A DNA stretch of 64,000 bases from Atribacteria bacterium SCGC AAA255-G05 (GTDB lineage Bacteria > Atribacterota > Phoenicimicrobiia > Phoenicimicrobiales > Phoenicimicrobiaceae), in assembly GCA_000405605.1 (NCBI GenBank), contig ASPA01000002.1, positions 16,998-80,997 on the forward strand. Direction: 5' to 3'. How positions within the stretch are numbered: position 1 is the first letter of the stretch; each line of letters starts with the position of its first letter. Below, piece after piece: positions 2,950 through 44,384 of this stretch. The notes under the pieces were generated by a model. The model ran no database searches. It had not been told where the DNA came from and saw nothing but the letters and a program-made list of their open reading frames with translations. Position numbers and translations under genes: made by a program.

Positions 2950-3753
2950 ATGAATGGTATAGTGAAAAAGGATTTACCCTTCAAAGATATCGAAATAAAT
3001 GATTTAGAAATAAAATTACTTCATTTGAAAAATTTAGTTGTTGAATCCAAAGAGTTAATAGAATTGGGATTTAAATATCTACTGAAAGTTAATTTTAGAA
3101 ATAAAGATGAATGGGCTTATCCGATCTTCTTGCTTTTTTTTTCAAGAGGATTTGAATTGTTAATGAAGGCTATGATTTGTTATAAGACTTATGAGAACAA
3201 TCATGATAGTAAGGATGAAAAAACATTTTTTCCCTCAACAGAATTTTTAAAAGAAAACATTGGACATAATTTAGTTGAATTAAGAGGTCTGATAATTCAG
3301 AATTATAATGGAATTAAAAAAAGGGAAAACAAAACAAATGAAAGGTTGATCAAAGATCTAAGGAAGGATCGTTATTTTCTATCGAATGATAAAAAATTAC
3401 TTTCTTTATTAGAAATATTTTCAGACTACGCAAGACAAGGTCGTTATTATGAATTAAATAAGATTACTGAATCTAATAGAAATGTCTATAATGCAAAAAT
3501 AGAATTTGATAATCTAATATTATCTTTTATCCAGAAAGATAAAACACTTTTAAATGAATGGAATAAAGAAGAAAATAATTCTAGTGAAGATGATTTTCTT
3601 AATAATATTGATAGTGTTTGGTCAAAAGTTGTAAAAGAAAATATTTTTCCTACTCTAAGAAAATATTTTGAGACTTTATATCGACAATTTAGCTATGGAT
3701 TACTAGGAGAAAAAGCAATGGAAGTGTCTTACTTTTTGGAAATTAATTTCTAA
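2950..3753 (+). CDS. Hypothetical protein, alpha-helical, possibly HEPN-like (weak).
   Basis: 267-aa ORF with an AGGAG ribosome-binding site ('aaggagttggaaaATG'). It has helical motifs ('FSRGFELLMKAM', 'IGHNLVELRG') but no canonical Rx4-6H could be confirmed. Confidence 0.45.
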   Translation: MNGIVKKDLPFKDIEINDLEIKLLHLKNLVVESKELIELGFKYLLKVNFRNKDEWAYPIFLLFFSRGFELLMKAMICYKTYENNHDSKDEKTFFPSTEFLKENIGHNLVELRGLIIQNYNGIKKRENKTNERLIKDLRKDRYFLSNDKKLLSLLEIFSDYARQGRYYELNKITESNRNVYNAKIEFDNLILSFIQKDKTLLNEWNKEENNSSEDDFLNNIDSVWSKVVKENIFPTLRKYFETLYRQFSYGLLGEKAMEVSYFLEINF

Positions 3754-3789
3754 ACAATAACGGTAAATCCTATTTTGATAAAACAGAGG

Positions 3790-5560
3790 AACGGTCCTTC
3801 GTTTGACAATACACTAGTAAATAACAAGAGATACATTCTAGTTTTTAAAATAACGAATCGTCCCAAGTCAATAGTCCGGTAACTTTTGGTTTTTGTCATA
3901 CTAAATTTAAGTATTTTTATTATATTTTATTCTGCAAATCAAAGAGCCACTCTTTCTCACTTTTTCTCTCTAATTATGCTAATTTACCTGACGATTATAA
4001 TTATAATTTGCAAACAACAGGGACGGAGCGGGTAGCTTTCCTTCCCCCTTAAATCCCCCCTAAAACCCTCCTCTTATCCCCCTTCTTTTTATTTTTGCTC
4101 TTTGGCTCAAAAGCTACGCTCGCGGGGACGCTTCTAAGCATAAATGCGAGCAGTAACGCTCTTTACGGCCCCGCTGTTGCTTCGCTTTATTCGCCACCGC
4201 AAAAAACCAAGGTTAGGCTATGATTCATTAGGGGGGAAGCATAAGGAGGAAGGAAAAACTGCGGTCGATTCACCTTCACTCTACCAGCATAAATGTAAGC
4301 TTATCGCTCTTTCCTCTCTCCCTTGCCCCGCCCCTATTTGCGAACCTTTTCGTGCAGCTGCCATCCATCGTGGTTTAGTCTTCTTCCCGGAAAAAAAAGA
4401 TAAAAAGTAAAAAAAGAGCAGAAGATCGGGAACTTTTTATCTTCTTTTTCGGTGATTATATTGTTTTGATTCTTTGCGGTTAAGCGATAAGAAAAAACAT
4501 ACAACTAATAAAAAGTTAAAAGAATCGCTTTTTATATATAAACTTTTTATTGTTGTAGTTTTTACCTATCGCGGGGGAAAGACAAGAAGGAGAGAAAAAA
4601 AGAAAGAGCAATACTCTCACCAGCAAATAGTAATTTACCTGGTGAGAGTATTGCCAGGGAGAAAGAGTATTGCTTTATTATAAGCAAGGGGAAATCACCC
4701 CTCTTTTACAAAAAGCAATACCAGAGAAGGAAAAGCAAAGGGAAGGGCATATCTTCAGAAAAAATCTTCAAAAAGAAAAACTTTTTTGAGATATTTTTAT
4801 CTGAAGTAATGCCGGGAGAAGAAAAAGTGCATAGTTTACGACAAGAGGGAAAAGCGCCCACTTGCCGAAAACTATGCTTTCCGTAGGGAAGGTAATGCAA
4901 TAATATCATTTATCTTTTCTTTTTAAGTGTCTATTTTTCTTCCGGATCTTTGTATTCGGCGCTGAGAGAGGGAGAACACTGCAAAAAAATCTACGCTTTC
5001 ATTTAAGACTTTTTGTAGTGCTTTCCCTCGGAAGCGCCATCGTTGCCGCACCTATAAACTCTTAGGATAGTTTTAGTATTTTTTTACTGCTACTGCTAAA
5101 AAATATTAAAAACGTAGAGGAACAATGATCAGAAATAGAAAGGAACCATAGGGTGAGTAGAAATAGAAGTGCAGCCCTACGACAAGAAGTATCTCATTTA
5201 GCCCGCCTTTATATTTTTAACCAGGCTAAAAAAACTTTTAACTGGTTAAAAATATAATGCTTTTTTTGCTATACATAACAAGACTTTATCGGATAAGATA
5301 AGCGTGAAATTATTTCTGGAAGAATGTCCGATAAAGTCTTGTTATGTATGTGGTGGCTTTCGAGTAAACTCCTTAACAAAAAAAGCTCCTGGCGGGCGGT
5401 CGTGGTAAAAGTAAATCAGTCGGAGTAGTTAAAATGGATTATTTAAAGCCGCTGAAGTAGTCTAAAACTGATAGGAATATGTATAGATTTATAAGGGAAA
5501 TTAAAATTGATCAAAATAACGATATATTTTTAAATTATTTTAAAGTTTATGCTTGACAGA
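3790..5560. other. Long (~1.75 kb) non-coding region with GC-rich islands and at least seven stable hairpins. Candidate large structured ncRNA or a cluster of sRNAs.
   Basis: No ORF of 100 aa or more. Perfect or near-perfect inverted repeats are visible, e.g. 'gcaatactctcaccag…ctggtgagagtattgc' (~4608-4655), 'gtattgcttt…aaagcaatac' (~4665-4722), 'ttttaaccag…ctggttaaaa' (~5215-5255) and 'catacataacaagactttatcgg…ccgataaagtcttgttatgtatg' (~5270-5350). GC-rich tracts ('ggacggagcgggtagc…ccttccccc', 'cgcggggacgc') sit in a ~30% GC genome. Confidence 0.3.
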
Positions 5561-5593
5561 ATTTTATAAAAGTTATATTGTATTGGTATACCA
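5553..5593 (+). promoter_or_regulatory. Putative sigma70-type promoter (TTGACA, 17 nt spacer, TATTGT) overlapping a perfect palindrome TGGTATACCA, which is a FadR/GntR-type operator.
   Basis: TTGACA lies at 5553-5558. The sequence 'tattggtataccaga' contains the 10-bp palindrome TGGTATACCA at 5584-5593, immediately upstream of the GntR gene's ribosome-binding site. Confidence 0.4.
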
Positions 5594-5607
5594 GAGAGGA
5601 GTTTGGT

Positions 5608-6276
5608 ATGCCAGCAAATAAAATCGAAAATGAAAAACTATCTGTTGAGATATATAAAAAGATTAAAAATAAACTTTTATATTTAGATATTTTGCCCGGT
5701 ACTGTTTTGCGAGAAATGGAAATAGCTAATATGTTCTCCGTAAGTCGTACCCCTATTCGAGAAGCTACACAAAGACTTGCAATTGAAGGATGGATTGAGA
5801 TTAATTCTCGTAAAAGTATAGTAATAAAAGCTATTTGTAAACAAGATGTAATAGAGATATTTGAATTTCGTCGTATTATTGAACCAATGGTGTTAGACAT
5901 AATCTTGGATAAAAGATTAGCTGATATCACATTGATTAATGATATTCAGGATACTTTAAATGCTATGAAATCTACGAAAGATAATACGGCAGAGTTTATT
6001 GATTTAGACCAAAATTTTCATGCTTTAATAATTCATAAGATTAATAATAAAAGATTAAATCAAACCTGGGAACAATTAAAGGACGAAATTATACGATTAG
6101 GCATGATAGCTCTGCAATATCCCGGAAGATTTACCAATGTAGCAGAAGAACATGAAAAAATAGTTGATGCTCTTGTAGATATGAAAAAGATGAAGGCCAG
6201 AAAAAGTTGTTTAGACCATCTTCGTTCAACGGAAGATATCATTTTGGAAAGTATATTTAAGAAAGGAAGTAAATAA
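5608..6276 (+). CDS. GntR-family transcriptional regulator (FadR/FCD subfamily).
   Basis: N-terminal GntR helix-turn-helix ('VSRTPIREATQRLAIEGWIEI') and a C-terminal FCD-like helical domain. ATG at 5608 follows the ribosome-binding site GAGAGGA. The supplied ORF begins at an upstream TTG at 5578. Confidence 0.8.
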   Translation: MPANKIENEKLSVEIYKKIKNKLLYLDILPGTVLREMEIANMFSVSRTPIREATQRLAIEGWIEINSRKSIVIKAICKQDVIEIFEFRRIIEPMVLDIILDKRLADITLINDIQDTLNAMKSTKDNTAEFIDLDQNFHALIIHKINNKRLNQTWEQLKDEIIRLGMIALQYPGRFTNVAEEHEKIVDALVDMKKMKARKSCLDHLRSTEDIILESIFKKGSK

Positions 6277-8947: not shown

Positions 8948-9418
8948 ATGAAACGGGTTACCCATATTTTAAATAAAATTATTGAGTATAGTTTAATAAT
9001 ATCTTTGGCCTTACTCTCTATTATTGTATCTCTTCAAGTCTTTTCCCGTTATCTTTTTAGTATACCTATGCCTTGGTCAACCGATATTAATAGAATTCTT
9101 TTTATTTATCTAGTTTTTTTAGGCGCTACAATAGGAATTAGAGATCAATCACATTTAAATATTGATATACTGGTAAATAAATTTCCAAAAAGACTTCAGA
9201 AGCTCTTAAATATTCTTGTTAATTTCATTATCTTGGTATTTTTGATTACATTAGTGGTAGCAGGGTTAATTTTTGTATTGAGTTCTACAAATCAGGTAAC
9301 TTCCTATTTAAGGATATCTATAAGCTATTATTATCTCGCAATTCCTTTGAGTGCCATAGCAATGGTTTATTATATTTCTTTTCATCTAAAAGACCAAATT
9401 AAAAATTTTAAAAAGTAG
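8948..9418 (+). CDS. dctQ: TRAP transporter small permease (DctQ family).
   Basis: 156-aa protein with four transmembrane segments, lying between dctP and dctM. Confidence 0.75.
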   Translation: MKRVTHILNKIIEYSLIISLALLSIIVSLQVFSRYLFSIPMPWSTDINRILFIYLVFLGATIGIRDQSHLNIDILVNKFPKRLQKLLNILVNFIILVFLITLVVAGLIFVLSSTNQVTSYLRISISYYYLAIPLSAIAMVYYISFHLKDQIKNFKK

Positions 9419-11101: not shown

Positions 11102-12086
11102 AAATTAAGTATATTAAATAATTGGTTATCTATGACAAGTGACAATTCTTTGATACACTTTTTATTGCCCAGTTACCATGTTAACCGTTTTCTAGTTGAC
11201 TAAAACTTAAAACAATAAGAGATGCTTTGTATAACTTAGGATTATATGGATATGATGATATGGAATTGGAAGTAATAAAAGACCTGAAGATATTAATTAT
11301 AGAATATTACGAAGATTTAAAAAATGAAAGAGAATTGAGTCAAACTTTAAAAAGAATGATGGTTTATTATGAAGAAATAATAGAAGAAAAGTAATATACA
11401 ATTTAAAAAAATAGAGTTACAGCGATAATTAATAAATTACAGATAGAATATAGTCAAAAAAGCATAATTATGAATTGCTTAAATATAAAGGGAACCTATT
11501 TTACCAGTATATTTTTCTCATAGTAGAAGAGATATGCCAAGAAAACTTTCAGATAAATTTAGACAATCTTTAAAAATTAATGGGGATAATTTTGAGAATT
11601 TAAAAAATTGTTATGTTAGCAGAGAAGATTATATCGAAATTCTAAAAGAAAAATGACTTATACAATAATTGAATAAAATAGTAAAATATTCACCAAAATC
11701 CTTGCTTTAAGAAAGTAGGGATTTTTATTATTACTTGAAGTATTAGATTTTTAAAGAGTGTGTATTAAGTAGATGAAAGGTGGGAGGGGTTCTGATCATA
11801 ATATAATATGATTGTAAAGAAAAATAAAAAGGCGGTGAAAACTGCTCTTTATTAATTATAACTATATTTTGCATGGAAGGGGGTCCTTCTTGTATCAGGA
11901 AGGATTCCTTTCTATTTTAATATAATAACGAGCAATTAAAAGGATACCAAAGAAAAAAGAACCTTTATGTATTAAAGAAGCTGATAATGCTCTAATGTTG
12001 ACTAATACATGGAAATATGATAATATATTCATATACTTCTTGGTTTTACTTGATTCAAAATCCATAAAAAAGGAGGTGAAAAATAA

Positions 12087-12314
12087 ATGGCCACAGTAAT
12101 CACTGTTCCCCGTGATTCATCCTTACAGTTCAGACTGGTAGTAGGTACCAATCCGGGTACCGGAGCTCCTACCATCAACAGCAAGACCTTTGGTAATATT
12201 AAATCAACTGCCTTAGATCAAGATGCCTATGATACAGCTACCGCTTTAGTAGGTTTGCAGAAGTATACTGTAGATGAAATCAGACTTGGAAAAGAATCCC
12301 AACTTACTGAATAG
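12087..12314 (+). CDS. DUF1659-like small protein.
   Basis: 75 aa with strong ribosome-binding site AAAGGAGGTG. Pattern 'L.F..G.…G.P…K.F.N.K…L……D.A.AL.GLQ' matches the Firmicutes DUF1659 family from memory. Confidence 0.5.
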   Translation: MATVITVPRDSSLQFRLVVGTNPGTGAPTINSKTFGNIKSTALDQDAYDTATALVGLQKYTVDEIRLGKESQLTE

Positions 12315-12454
12315 CAAATTAGTCGTTGTGGATAGTGAATAGCCGTTAGCAGGGAAGGGGGGATAATAGCAAAGGAACGGCTAATAACTAAAACTAAAAA
12401 CCGATAACAGATTTACCAGATGGTAAATCCTTAAAAAGGAGGTGAAAAAAAATA

Positions 12455-12727
12455 ATGGCTACCGAATTAGGGGATGTAACTAGTTACAAAAGACTCTATC
12501 TGCAATTCAGGGATAGTGCTGCAAAAACTGTCAACCTCACTTTGGACAATCCCAAAAATTTAGATGATGGAGATTATGCAGACTTAGCTGCACAAGATGC
12601 AGCTATAGAAGGAGTTATGGATACGATTATCGCTAAGAACGTCTTCCATAATAGCGGCAATGACCTAGTGGCTAAAGTCAATGCCAGAATCCTTGATTAT
12701 AAGTCTACTGATGTTGTGGATGTATAA
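12455..12727 (+). CDS. DUF2922-like small protein.
   Basis: 90 aa with the same AAAGGAGGTG ribosome-binding site. It carries 'MDTIIAKNVF', the hallmark of DUF2922. It is paired with a DUF1659 protein, as is usual. Confidence 0.5.
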   Translation: MATELGDVTSYKRLYLQFRDSAAKTVNLTLDNPKNLDDGDYADLAAQDAAIEGVMDTIIAKNVFHNSGNDLVAKVNARILDYKSTDVVDV

Positions 12728-12798
12728 CTTTAATATATTGTAATATTTCTCCTTGGAAGGGCCGCGGACCTTCCCTGGGAGATAGAAAGGAGCAATAA

Positions 12799-13161
12799 AT
12801 GTTAGAAGGTTTTATCACGAAATATCTATTAGATTTCACTCTGGTTTTTCTGGTTGGCCTGGCCTCTAAATTTATGATCAATAAGTTTGGCCAGGATAGG
12901 ACAGATAAAATAAAAGAGGCCATTCTGGCAGCTATGCTTTGGGCAGAGGAAGAACTTGGCATAGGAAACGGTGAGGAAAAATGGAAAATAGCCTGGGTAA
13001 AGTTGATTGAAATATTGAAGAAACAAAAGGTTGAATTAAAAGAGGGTGAAATATCCTATGTAAAGGATCTGATGAAGGCTACTGTCCCGGAGGTGAACGA
13101 AATTATTTATAAGGCCATGCCTGATGTCGTAAGGAACGGCAGGACCTTAAAATATAAATAA
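12799..13161 (+). CDS. Putative phage holin (LL-H-like).
   Basis: 120 aa with an N-terminal transmembrane helix and a charged C-terminus. It lies immediately upstream of a peptidase M15 gene, the typical holin-endolysin order. Confidence 0.4.
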   Translation: MLEGFITKYLLDFTLVFLVGLASKFMINKFGQDRTDKIKEAILAAMLWAEEELGIGNGEEKWKIAWVKLIEILKKQKVELKEGEISYVKDLMKATVPEVNEIIYKAMPDVVRNGRTLKYK

Positions 13162-13554
13162 ATGATGGGTATAATTAATGATATAGAATTAACTGAATAT
13201 TTTTCTTTATATGAGTTTGAGTGTCCCTGCTGTAAGCGGGTTATGCTGTCTCCGGACCTTTTTGCCAGGTTAAATCATTTAAGGATGGTGATAAATAGGC
13301 CAGTATATATCAACTCCGGATACCGGTGTCCGGAGGAAAATCATAAGGTAGGAGGAGTTCCCGGTTCTTATCATCTCCTAGGTATGGCGGTAGATATTCA
13401 TGTAAAGGATTATTTGCTTTATGATCTTCTCCTATTTGCTCAGGAAATAGGATTTAATGGTATTGGATTTTATGAAAAGAAAGATTTCTTACATCTCGAT
13501 ATGAGGCCTGGACCAAAACGCTTTTGGAAAGGAAAAGAATTAATTGGATATTGA
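13162..13554 (+). CDS. Peptidase M15A family (D-Ala-D-Ala carboxypeptidase/endolysin-like, YcbK-like).
   Basis: 'SGYRCPEENHKVGGVPGSYHLLGMAVDIHV' is the M15 zinc-binding signature. Confidence 0.7.
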   Translation: MMGIINDIELTEYFSLYEFECPCCKRVMLSPDLFARLNHLRMVINRPVYINSGYRCPEENHKVGGVPGSYHLLGMAVDIHVKDYLLYDLLLFAQEIGFNGIGFYEKKDFLHLDMRPGPKRFWKGKELIGY

Positions 13555-13747
13555 ATATGTACTAAAGTTAATAGCAAATAATGGGTTTCCTCTGGTGCTT
13601 TCTATCTACCTGGTATATAAATTGGAATTTTTTATTACCGAAATCATCAAAAATCAAAAGGAATTTTCCCAGGATATTACTGCTGAAATCAAAGAAATTA
13701 AGAAAACAATCAATGATCTACGCGTAGATTTTGCAAGAAATCAATGA
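13544..13747 (+). CDS. BhlA/UviB-family holin-like small membrane protein.
   Basis: 67 aa. Its N-terminus 'MDIEYVLKLIANNGFPLVLSIYLVYKLEFF' matches the BhlA pattern (M..E…L….G.F..L..YLL). It overlaps the M15 stop codon by 11 nt. Confidence 0.45.
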   Translation: MDIEYVLKLIANNGFPLVLSIYLVYKLEFFITEIIKNQKEFSQDITAEIKEIKKTINDLRVDFARNQ

Positions 13748-14515
13748 AACCATTGAAAAATAAGGGTTTTAGCGTTTTTTAAAAAAGCTTCGTATTTGGC
13801 GTATATGAGGTGTATTTAAAAAATACGATGAATTATACCAACGCTCTTAAAACAGGGGCTTAAAACAGGCTTAAATAAGATGTTATTTTTCATGATTTAT
13901 GAAATACCCCGTTTATATCCTTATTTCCTCCTGTATACTCTCTTTATCTTCTGTATTCTCTTCATTTCTTACATATTTGCCTTTGCGTTGCACATAGACA
14001 GGTTTGCAAGAAATTATATTAAAATGCTAAACTTTCAATTAGCTTTTTTAGTTAAATTGACATATAAAACAATATAGTTATTATAGCCATTCATAATAGT
14101 CAATTTCAACATACCTACAGAGTGTTTCTAAAGGTGCTTCTTTAAAAAGATTATCAGATATTTCCACTTCCTTAAGCTCTCATCTAAGAATTCTCTTTCA
14201 ACTTTTCTGTCAAGCACGATATTTCCTCCTATCAATGACTGAATTGAATTTAGATTAAACTCAACCTTGCTCGAGCGTCTAGAATAAATATTAGATCCCA
14301 TTTACTTTCCTCTAAAGTAAGATTCTGGCATAAGGATGAGTTTTTAGGTATGTAAAAAGTTAAAAATATTGAGCTTAATTTAGTCCACTTTTGAAATGTA
14401 ACTAACAAATCACAGTTTGACTTGACAAATATAAAAAAGTATTTTATTATATAATAAATTGTTTTGCATATAACAAAACGATTATTATAATAAAATTAAA
14501 TAGTAAGGATCCTAA

Positions 14516-26997: not shown

Positions 26998-27355
26998 ATT
27001 AAGTGAAGCGAATATATAAATATGCGATTTTTTGAATCGATTAAACTAAATATTTTTATAAAGTCAAGTTAGGGAGGTCTGGCATGTTAGTGGGTAGAAG
27101 TCAATAGAAGCCATATTAGCTGGTTAATACTAGTGAAGGGTTGAACATGAAGTGGGGGATTAACATGGTAGGTTCGAGAAACATATTAAAAAGGAAGAAA
27201 ACTCTACCAAGAGTCTACCCTGGAAAGAAAGCGGTGTAGCTGCCGACCAATCAGGGAGAGTCGAGTATGTACTCGGTACAAACCAAAGATTAATTCCGCG
27301 GAGAACTCCGTAGTGCTTTATGAACCAACTGCCATATACCGAACGAAACGTACGG

Positions 27356-43821: not shown

Positions 43822-44384
43822 TGTATGAAGGTAACAGGAGAGACTTTTTCTTTCCATCATAAAAGAAAAAGAGCCGAAGAGGCAAGATACCAAAAGTATC
43901 CAAACTTTCAGGCCAATGGACTGTTACCGGACAGAACTCTGGAGAGCTTTATACTAAAAAGCACCGACGGGGCAATTCCTAATCTTTAGGAAAACCCATA
44001 CAGAGTTTACTAAAAAGAACTATCTCCTAATTTCTTAGGAAGAATCTTTCAGGTAAAAGGACAGAGCAAGAATAGCAATATAACTATTTTTACTCTGTCC
44101 TTTTTTATTTTTATGATGAACAGTCTATGCAAATACTTAAAAGTTGACAAAGGTAAACTATTCCGAAAGGATAGGGAGCAAGGTTATGAATCTAAGAATT
44201 GGTTAAGATGAAATAAATTAAGTGTACTGCTGAGAGGATTAAAAAATAAAAAAGGAAGGAGTGATTGATAGGATAATATAAAAAATATAAATAAAGTATT
44301 AATTTCGATTATCATTTAAAATTTGCTGCAGACTAAAGACATATAAGACTTTTCCAATAAAATAATTAAAAGGAGTTATTTAAA
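43822..44384 (+). ncRNA. R2 conserved leader copy C, with an internal terminator at ~44055-44112.
   Basis: Collinear with copies A and B. It ends at the ribosome-binding site 'aaaaggagttatttaaaATG', which is shared with copy B. Confidence 0.5.

Follow-up and report, generated by a model that had tools for sequence, protein, structure and literature searches.

Introduction

Bacterial genomes encode several classes of large non-coding RNA (ncRNA), such as OLE (RF01071), GOLLD, ROOL, HEARO and raiA, which span hundreds of nucleotides, are GC-rich in AT-rich genomes and combine a closed, elaborate fold with conservation without coding potential. GOLLD and ROOL are, in addition, found on mobile DNA. 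Here we describe a locus with the same traits in Atribacteria bacterium SCGC AAA255-G05, a member of the Atribacterota, a phylum that is abundant in anoxic sediments and lakes and almost uncultured. The locus fills a gene-free gap in a stretch of 64,000 nucleotides of contig ASPA01000002.1 (assembly GCA_000405605.1, positions 16,998 to 80,997), hereafter called the window, to which all coordinates refer unless a contig is named.

Other described systems resemble parts of this locus. The pneumococcal BOX elements are modular intergenic repeats of the layout boxA-(boxB)n-boxC, with more than 100 dispersed copies per genome. Multi-hairpin regulatory RNAs with C-rich loops include RNAIII of S. aureus, LhrC of Listeria and RsaE, while CsrB and RsmZ serve as protein sponges. 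On plasmids and integrated elements, folded signals of single-stranded DNA (ssDNA) comprise the single-strand initiation sites ssiA and ssiB of RSF1010, the single-strand origins (sso) ssoA and ssoU of pMV158-type plasmids and the sso of ICEBs1.

We report a conserved, non-coding and modular locus with a strand-specific fold, which shares one module with small replicons and belongs to no described family. A GC-rich module of 314 nt is followed on its right by a variable array of hairpins and a second conserved block. Tests for membership in known classes of elements and RNAs failed, and the locus was therefore rated as lying outside the known kinds. It differs from the large ncRNAs in that none of them was matched among 4227 Rfam models even at E ≤ 10, in that its conserved part measures only 314 nt with main helices that lack covariation, and in its variable, shuffled chain of hairpins, which is found in none of those classes. 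With BOX elements it has in common the A-(B)n-C layout, conserved ends, a variable count of hairpin middle modules and a non-coding, intergenic nature, but BOX is about 10 times smaller, the present locus apparently occurs once per genome in a syntenic position, and the middle modules form 88 families instead of one. The regulatory RNAs and sponges likewise consist of a chain of stem-loops with unpaired parts of common composition and a variable number of units, whereas the present locus is much larger, has no predicted terminator and carries its GGA motifs on the non-folding strand.

Results

A long non-coding gap

The gap extends from 3754 to 5607, between the stop codon of a 267-aa open reading frame (ORF) at 3753 and the ATG of a GntR gene at 5608. 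Its longest ORF comprises 88 aa (4144–4410), in line with the initial annotation of the window, which was made from the sequence and had found no ORF of 100 aa or more in this region. Compared to the homologous locus L002 (related loci are given by their L numbers), the 88-aa ORF is broken by indels of 3 nt and 2 nt, and given its short length and these non-triplet indels the reading of the gap as a coding region or pseudogene was dropped. The GC content reaches about 50% at 4000–4340 (0.50 at 4001–4200), compared to approximately 25–30% in the flanks and roughly 28–34% in the genome. The C/G-rich tracts that the annotation had pointed out were located at 4040–4082 (C-rich) and 4122–4132 (cgcggggacgc). 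The gap contains no significant family of direct repeats.

The same annotation had counted at least seven long, near-perfect hairpins, including stems of 16 bp and about 23 bp, and this description held: there are about ten hairpins, with perfect stems of 16, 16 and 23 bp. A census of hairpins with a stem of at least 12 and a loop of at most 40 returned seven in the gap, i.e. 3.8 per kb compared to 0.5 per kb over the whole window, and folding added three more (Table 1). Relative to dinucleotide shuffles, the minimum free energy (MFE) of the segment 4380–5360 was −309 kcal/mol on the minus strand (shuffles −194, z = −14.4) and −311 kcal/mol on the plus strand (shuffles −215, z = −13.9).

Conservation of the locus

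The locus recurs at 70–93% identity in metagenome-assembled genomes (MAGs) of Atribacterota and in at least 120 metagenome contigs. Two probes were cut from the 31-mer AAGGTTAGGCTATGATTCATTAGGGGGGAAG at the core of the module. The 24-mer probe occurred on six contigs from 4 of 185,579 species representatives, namely three Atribacterota MAGs and one contig binned as Promethearchaeota, while the 21-mer probe was found on at least 120 metagenome contigs. In the MAGs the non-coding block is 70–84% identical to the window and the neighbouring coding DNA 74–84%; for L019 the corresponding values are 77–80% and, for the adjoining genes, 74–84%. The Promethearchaeota (Asgard) contig L018 (JAHLWS010000086.1, 26.7 kb), which also has a Prim-Pol gene, carries a block 77–83% identical to the window and is therefore probably misbinned. 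Hence, synteny and conservation beyond the strain, which the initial annotation had listed among the checks to be made, were found, with 70–84% identity at a kept position across species. The presence of two contigs per MAG had raised the possibility of two copies per genome; this was set aside, as L017 and L019 share their right-hand synteny and strain heterogeneity within the bin is at least as likely.

Close strains diverge in the left part. The GntR protein of the window is encoded without change on the contigs L002 and L004–L011; rightwards of 5032 these contigs match the window at about 100%, and to the left of this position they diverge. The gene-free gap of L002 measures 2.6 kb and is built likewise; two of its hairpin modules are 72–76% identical to those of the window in reversed order, and its upstream genes, a type III restriction-modification system, are unrelated to those of the window.

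No match was obtained with blastn in collections of phage and plasmid reference sequences, and three conserved words had no match in IMG/VR. The scan with the covariance models of Rfam 15 (4227 models) was also empty at the gathering threshold in 3754–5607, in agreement with the earlier failure to identify motifs of a known class, and the families without gathering-level score include 6S RNA, transfer-messenger RNA, RNase P and group I and II introns. At E ≤ 10 the hairpins gave only sub-threshold look-alikes of microRNAs and small nucleolar RNAs. No Rfam match was found on seven related loci and the circles described below.

The GC-rich module

The module is 93% identical to the window copy in L002, 80–83% in the MAG loci and about 72% on the circles. 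It starts with ACGGGGCGGG and finishes with CCCCGCCCCT; these ends pair as P1, and in the helices P2 and P3 a C-rich 5′ strand faces a G-rich 3′ strand (Table 1). The predicted fold is closed, with an MFE of −120 kcal/mol (z = −4.2) and more G than C on the minus strand. For the inner domain, at least five sequences unrelated to one another were found, each within the retained frame, and consensus folds of this domain by type were too noisy. In the alignment, the pairing cells of P1–P3 comprise 2218 Watson-Crick, 17 G:T and 16 A:C combinations. These helices are near-invariant and therefore yield neither covariation nor strand information.

In most copies the run of C-tracts in the module constitutes a G-quadruplex motif on the minus strand. 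Of the 103 distinct copies, at least 65 have this motif, the background being six motifs per 100 kb. In the window, run 2 of the G-tracts is weakened to GGAGGG, so that this copy lacks the strict N1–7 pattern.

Left of the module, a further 130–250 nt or so are conserved in many loci, and words such as TAGATCTAATTTAATCCACTCCGG and TAATATTTCACATTT recur there in about 20 of 92 loci.

A hairpin array maintained on the minus strand

The variable hairpin array (4385–5040) lies to the right of the module. Among the 103 distinct copies, hairpin density is 4.67 per kb in the 1.5 kb after the module; the upstream side has 0.76 and shuffles have 0.09. By sequence, 88 hairpin families were distinguished, whose combination, order and copy number vary between loci. 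Module B (4352–4581), for example, matches positions 9094–9309 of L002 at 72% and is present twice in both L018 and L019. No hairpin or module of the array has a further copy elsewhere in the window.

Isolated mismatches within the stems have a clear polarity. Read on the plus strand, the 103 distinct copies contain 334 A:C and 65 G:T mismatches. The same bias was found in unique hairpins (244 A:C and 55 G:T), and 36 families have more A:C compared to 14 with more G:T. Where the plus strand has A:C, the minus strand has a G-U (or G-T) wobble; hence the stems are kept foldable on the minus strand, where alone these wobbles form. Base composition was rejected as the source of the excess because the ratio of A:C to G:T expected from it is about 1.1, compared to 5.1 observed. 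The polarity of the loops is fixed as well: in plus-strand reading, purines exceed 60% in 160 loops and fall below 40% in only 20. The minus-strand loops are thus pyrimidine-rich, the word UCCCGC is kept in the loops of family 0, and GGA motifs sit on the non-folding strand.

Compensatory changes were tested in two families. In family 0 (58 variants), three pairs change from A-U to G-C in 10–12 of 32 sequences, and the covariation score of 0.190, compared to 0.114 in shuffles, was reached by none of 500 shuffles. In family 2 (36 variants), which is rich in G-U pairs when read on the minus strand, five pairs are altered on both sides, a count that one of 500 shuffles matched.

Putative small circular replicons share the module

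Ten contigs with the module (Table 1) end in exact terminal direct repeats, which corresponds to units of 2101–3201 bp; these are putative circles, as a tandem array in a chromosome would assemble alike. They have about 37–40% GC, are roughly 70% non-coding and, where a contig name is listed, all stem from JABUBM-Q assemblies. They encode an initiator of the Phage_rep_O type (PF04492, 44.1 bits at a cutoff of 28.7) and a helix-turn-helix (HTH)/excisionase-like ORF of 75 aa. Iterons lie in or beside rep (L092 1225–1326, four copies; L048u 1410–1505). Circular contig, initiator and iterons together correspond to small theta-type plasmids. The module itself is not an iteron-type origin, since it contains none of these iterons.

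The module is the sole part common to the circles and the window. All 20 of 20 rep genes are located on the strand equivalent to the minus strand of the window, and the 2101-bp circle L092 has a single direction with the order promoter, HTH ORF, rep, hairpin and module, the last being distal to rep. The stem mismatches of the circles (16 A:C and 6 G:T) point to the same strand.

Table 1 Features of the locus and related sequences. Positions refer to the window unless a contig is named.
Feature	Position	Strand	Remarks
Repeat unit of ~130 nt	3858–3892; L002 6215–6350; L127 (two copies, 1242 nt apart); L071, L104, L120, L136		
Left block, AT-rich, with CTAATTTA-like words	3890–4022	minus	3890–3975 and 3946–4338 correspond to L002 7481–7567 and 7664–8055, 71–86%
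GC-rich module, 314 nt, ~50% GC	4023–4336	minus	sharp ends in non-redundant alignment of 76 sequences
P1, module ends	4025–4032/4328–4335		
P2, 15 bp	4037–4051/4242–4256		
P3, 10 bp	4054–4063/4228–4237		
C-tract run (plus), G-tracts (minus)	4044–4082	minus	mostly G5-N6-G6-N5-G6-N6-G5, G-quadruplex motif
31-mer core (plus reading)	4209–4239	minus	invariant in first 8 copies aligned; mostly unpaired in predicted fold
Hairpin family 0, first part of module B	4385–4455	minus	inverted repeat I3, 4385–4408/4432–4455, 24 nt, 88%
Long imperfect hairpin, second part of module B	4484–4572	minus	added by folding; folded in both strand predictions
Hairpin family 2 (module C)	4608–4654	minus	inverted repeat I8, perfect 16 bp, 4608–4623/4639–4654
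Nested hairpin family 6, GTATTGC...GCAATAC around GGGG...CCCC	4667–4721	minus	added by folding; 29 variants
Hairpin	4745–4814	minus	stem 4753–4764/4795–4806; folded in both strand predictions
Hairpin	4829–4877	minus	inverted repeat I4, 4829–4849/4857–4877, 21-nt arms, 86%; plus-strand mismatches A:A, A:C, A:A
Hairpin holding strain breakpoint 5032	4958–5038	minus	added by folding; folded in both strand predictions
Right block, conserved start in minus reading	5032–5410	minus	77–84% identity in L017, L018, L019; 16 distinct loci aligned
Right-block hairpin	5071–5111	minus	
Right-block hairpin	5209–5257	minus	perfect 16 bp, 5209–5224/5242–5257
Right-block hairpin	5271–5349	minus	perfect 23 bp, 5271–5293/5327–5349
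GC-rich 21-mer GCTCCTGGCGGGCGGTCGTGG after A7	5385–5405	minus	conservation starts here in minus reading
Putative circles	L037, L048, L053, L055, L069, L070, L073, L080, L092, L102		

The right block

The 21-mer GCTCCTGGCGGGCGGTCGTGG occurs once in the window (0 expected by chance) and in about 17 chromosomal loci, at a distance of 1.2–2.9 kb from the core with one outlier at about 6 kb. It is present twice, 1437 nt apart, in L019 (3639–3659 and 5076–5096), L044 and L103, around a gene for a trypsin-like peptidase, which suggests an insertion with duplicated target.

Some further observations concern this block. The 17-nt loop of the hairpin 5209–5257 is inverted in the close strain L013 (132–180; 98% in reverse orientation), corresponding to a flip between the arms. 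In most right blocks, namely in L013 and most of the aligned loci, the minus strand contains a long tract rich in C (CCCCTCCCTCCCCC...), which is missing from the window (5140–5185) and from L002. The independent assemblies L014 and L015 (Logan SRR8437243 and SRR8437287) both begin exactly at window position 5380, 5 nt before the 21-mer; this shared start could be a transcript end or an assembly break.

Genomic context and a variable gene slot

Downstream of the gap, profile searches identified a GntR/FCD regulator, DUF2848, CN-hydrolase and TRAP-transporter genes. The GntR operon of the initial annotation was thereby recovered, in contrast to the cluster with a Toprim domain that it had placed upstream: none of the upstream proteins (163–1863, 1909–2634 and 2950–3753) has a Toprim domain according to the Pfam, PADLOC, PHROGs and NCBIfam profiles. 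The 566-aa and 267-aa proteins matched nothing in these four libraries, and the 241-aa protein had sub-threshold matches alone, to DUF5677 (Pfam), LeoA (PADLOC) and phrog_4680 (PHROGs). Toprim or defence-system neighbours are accordingly unsupported. In L017 and L019 the block adjoins homologues of window positions ~11,880–13,970; hence, the GntR-TRAP operon was inserted in the lineage of the window.

Directly left of the module, between one and three genes occupy a hypervariable slot, and among 67 distinct cases the left gene is directed towards the module in 62. A Prim-Pol gene (PF09250) lies just upstream in 14 chromosomal loci; the other left neighbours include Abi_2, NYN, restriction enzymes, SocA/Panacea, IS21, once an IS200-type transposase, and unknowns. 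On the right, 34 of 51 nearest genes lie on the minus strand, convergent pairs were counted in 23 of 36, and about one third of the right-hand genes are divergent, among them GntR of the window. DUF2922, holin-like and M15-peptidase genes are kept on the right in 11 of the approximately 24 loci with enough sequence. Contig ends cluster around the 31-mer core, and the assembly of the window's own sample broke at 4055 and 4739; both fit a sequence common to many strain variants.

A repeat unit of about 130 nt (...catcccattttcttaaatagggaaggcgtaccaagtcaatagtccggtaacttttgggttgtcctggaagaaaagagaagagaaataataaaagagtggattgattccggaaggat...; Table 1) was observed directly upstream of different slot genes left of the module. 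It has no match in Rfam and may serve the variable genes in common as a leader, promoter or exchange site; the window retains its middle part with no gene after it.

Elsewhere in the window, three tandem glycine riboswitches (31685–31924, 36187–36427 and 43825–44066), a cyclic di-GMP-I riboswitch at 32000–32098, less than 80 nt after one of them, and a match to group II intron domains D1–D4 just above threshold (27063–27141) were observed.

Discussion

A long minus-strand RNA as the favoured reading

We favour, with less than even confidence, the reading of the locus as a long modular RNA of the minus strand that would extend from about 5410 to about 4020 or slightly beyond. The initial annotation had considered a large structured ncRNA of OLE, GOLLD or ROOL size or a cluster of small RNAs, besides the decayed mobile element treated below. 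These proposals were supported in part: the region is conserved, has a strand-specific structure and shows compensatory changes. Membership in a family of the OLE, GOLLD or ROOL type is contradicted by Rfam. We infer that the folded strand is RNA and not ssDNA, and likewise the limits of the transcript and any activity.

In such an RNA, the conserved block 5410–5032 would form the 5′ part and a chain of autonomous stem-loops (5040–4385), with pyrimidine-rich loops and linkers and fast turnover from strain to strain, the middle. The near-invariant GC-rich 314 nt (4336–4023) would form the 3′ domain. On the Rep_O-type circles the same domain lies at the far end of the single transcription direction, after HTH and rep. 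As for activity, our guess is a scaffold or decoy, in which the hairpin chain with its C/U-rich loops may capture a protein or RNA sites rich in purines. A specific partner that host and plasmid share might recognise the invariant domain, the arms of which are kept as sequence and not merely as pairs. RNA is favoured because the genes of the circles are encoded on the strand that folds, because the module has the composition of a structured RNA and a closed fold in an AT-rich genome, and because the chromosomal locus behaves as a single syntenic gene and not as a mobile repeat.

It is possible, although we regard this as doubtful, that such transcripts would constitute a new class of modular RNAs of 1.4–3 kb, with a G-rich 314-nt 3′ "head" and an exchangeable stem-loop "tail" drawn from dozens of families. 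Cross-talk between host and plasmid would then be conceivable, and the arms with G- and C-tracts might alternate between duplex form and a quadruplex or R-loop.

Several points weigh against the RNA reading. Intrinsic terminators, defined as a short GC-rich stem plus U-run, were absent from 3600–5800 (1.8 expected from shuffles) and from L092 (1–2560; 2.9 expected). At the right end, words resembling a sigma-70 promoter on the minus strand are shared, but their spacing is inconsistent, so that no convincing conserved promoter emerged. Pyrimidine-rich loops are unusual in structured RNAs, and perfect RNA duplexes of 16–23 bp are expected to be substrates of RNase III. G-T wobbles also stabilise ssDNA, and the strand bias is therefore compatible with either RNA or ssDNA. 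The main helices P1–P3 of the module lack covariation, their arms being near-invariant, so its fold is supported by thermodynamics and the domain swap only, and a DNA site would be just as likely to have both arms invariant. Finally, the families were gathered with a hairpin finder and the paired fraction is thus inflated by construction; the mismatch ratio and the double changes are unaffected.

Concerning terminators, we also noted that these organisms may rely little on the canonical form of hairpin plus U-run, with none predicted in either region.

Alternative explanations

The folded strand might act as ssDNA instead. The minus-strand hairpins and the module would then be signals for single-strand initiation, primosome assembly or an sso-like function, at which a primase or RNA polymerase reads the folded strand to prime the complementary strand, and the chromosomal locus would be a domesticated or integrated derivative. 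The locus resembles ssi and sso signals, which are strand-specific folded non-coding cassettes common to unrelated replicons and integrated elements with an orientation fixed to rep. RSF1010 ssiA and ssiB are hairpins read by a primase of the archaeo-eukaryotic type, and sso elements are common to unrelated plasmids and integrative and conjugative elements; both count in favour of this explanation. So do the presence of the module on Rep-encoding circles with its strand fixed relative to rep, the Prim-Pol genes just upstream, the strand specificity of the hairpins and the preservation of the module arms as sequence. Nevertheless, we consider it unlikely. The Rep of the circles is of the Phage_rep_O type with iterons and not an HUH rolling-circle protein, so that no long-lived single strand is expected. 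The plus strand of the window carries the leading-strand GC skew, hence presumably the plus strand and not the folding strand is exposed during replication. Moreover, the chromosomal copy is syntenic, conserved across species and not island-borne, 88 families of highly diverse hairpins are a poor fit to recognition by a single primase, and Prim-Pol is just one among many alternative neighbours.

A transcription stop or insulator between convergent genes appears less probable still. Here the module would be a bidirectional terminator and the hairpins stabilisers of 3′ ends, which would shield core genes and the control of plasmid replication from read-through out of the changing gene slot. The gene orientations given above, both on the left and on the right, fit this role, and on the circles the module closes the only transcription direction. 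The deficit of canonical intrinsic terminators also agrees with it, as does the arrangement of the module arms: transcription from either direction shows the C-rich, G-poor arm first, similar to a Rho utilization (rut) site, and its G-rich partner about 170 nt later. However, terminators and rut sites normally vary in sequence, while the 31-mer and both arms are near-invariant from chromosome to plasmid. A length of 1.4–3 kb far exceeds the needs of termination, the hairpins lack U-tails, and one third of the right-hand genes, including GntR of the window, are divergent. A cluster of intrinsic terminators was rejected, with no such site predicted in 3600–5800 of the window or in L092.

Comparably improbable is a recombination or integration site common to host and plasmids, of the att, dif, attC or MITE (miniature inverted-repeat transposable element) kind, at which gene cassettes and replicons would be exchanged, with the hairpins as debris or accessory parts left by recurrent events. 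Many signs of exchange surround the module: the hypervariable slot directly to its left, the strain breakpoint at 5032, the shuffled order of modules with the duplication of module B, the contig ends at the core, the 21-mer doubled around an inserted gene in L019, L044 and L103, and the flipped hairpin loop in L013. Partial modules in L020, L033 and L066/L140 break at most about 15 nt from the invariant core. These signs are opposed by the lack of suitable enzymes and boundaries. Integrases, relaxases and transposases were not enriched among the most frequent families of 140 flanking protein clusters, Phage_integrase is not among the 25 leading of the 150 matched families, and the Y1 transposase occurred once, plus one fragment, in 141 loci. 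No second module or 21-mer bounds the inserts of the window; a duplicated att site around the GntR-TRAP insert was rejected for this reason, the 21-mer being single. The inner segment was never inverted: across 92 distinct inner segments there were no high-scoring segment pairs in opposite orientation, compared to 6992 in the same orientation, which also led to the rejection of an inverton, the one flipped loop (5209–5257) in L013 notwithstanding. Neither wobbles biased to one strand nor compensatory changes are expected of debris, and outside the locus the window contains none of these hairpins.

Arrays of attC sites, including clusters of attC sites lacking an integron integrase (CALINs), share with the locus strand-specific hairpins in which structure is kept over sequence and an adjoining set of variable, co-oriented genes. 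They differ by R′/R″ boxes and IntI, both lacking here, and by one hairpin per gene where the present hairpins are packed. The hairpin bases GCAATAC/GTATTGC, AAAAAGAAG/CTTGTTTTT and ATACATAAC/GTTATGTAT, judged by inspection, contain no boxes of the attC type GTTRRRY/RYYYAAC, and attC arrays were rejected.

The initial annotation had also named a decayed mobile element, insertion sequence (IS) or prophage remnant, which is untenable with the position and 70–84% identity kept across species and no linked transposase or integrase. Dispersed repeats fail as well, whether BOX-like, MITEs or decayed IS, or repetitive extragenic palindromes (REP), bacterial interspersed mosaic elements with REP-associated tyrosine transposases and IS200/IS605 ends: there is no other copy in the window, no linked transposase apart from the rare Y1 cases already given, and the strand-biased mismatch spectrum is not expected of transposase-bound double-stranded ends.

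Conclusions

In the literature searched, we found no description of plasmids or ncRNAs of Atribacterota. The 314-nt module provides a sharply bounded, widespread non-coding family, with at least 120 contigs, that can be searched and modelled directly. With it come the apparently undescribed miniature replicons of this phylum (2.1–3.2 kb, Rep_O-type). The locus evolves in an unusual manner, combining invariant ends with a library of hairpins in fast turnover and a clear strand signature. If it acts as RNA, it would be among the largest bacterial ncRNAs, with an architecture that the known classes lack; acting as DNA, it would represent a new kind of cis element that ties plasmids to a chromosomal hotspot of gene exchange.

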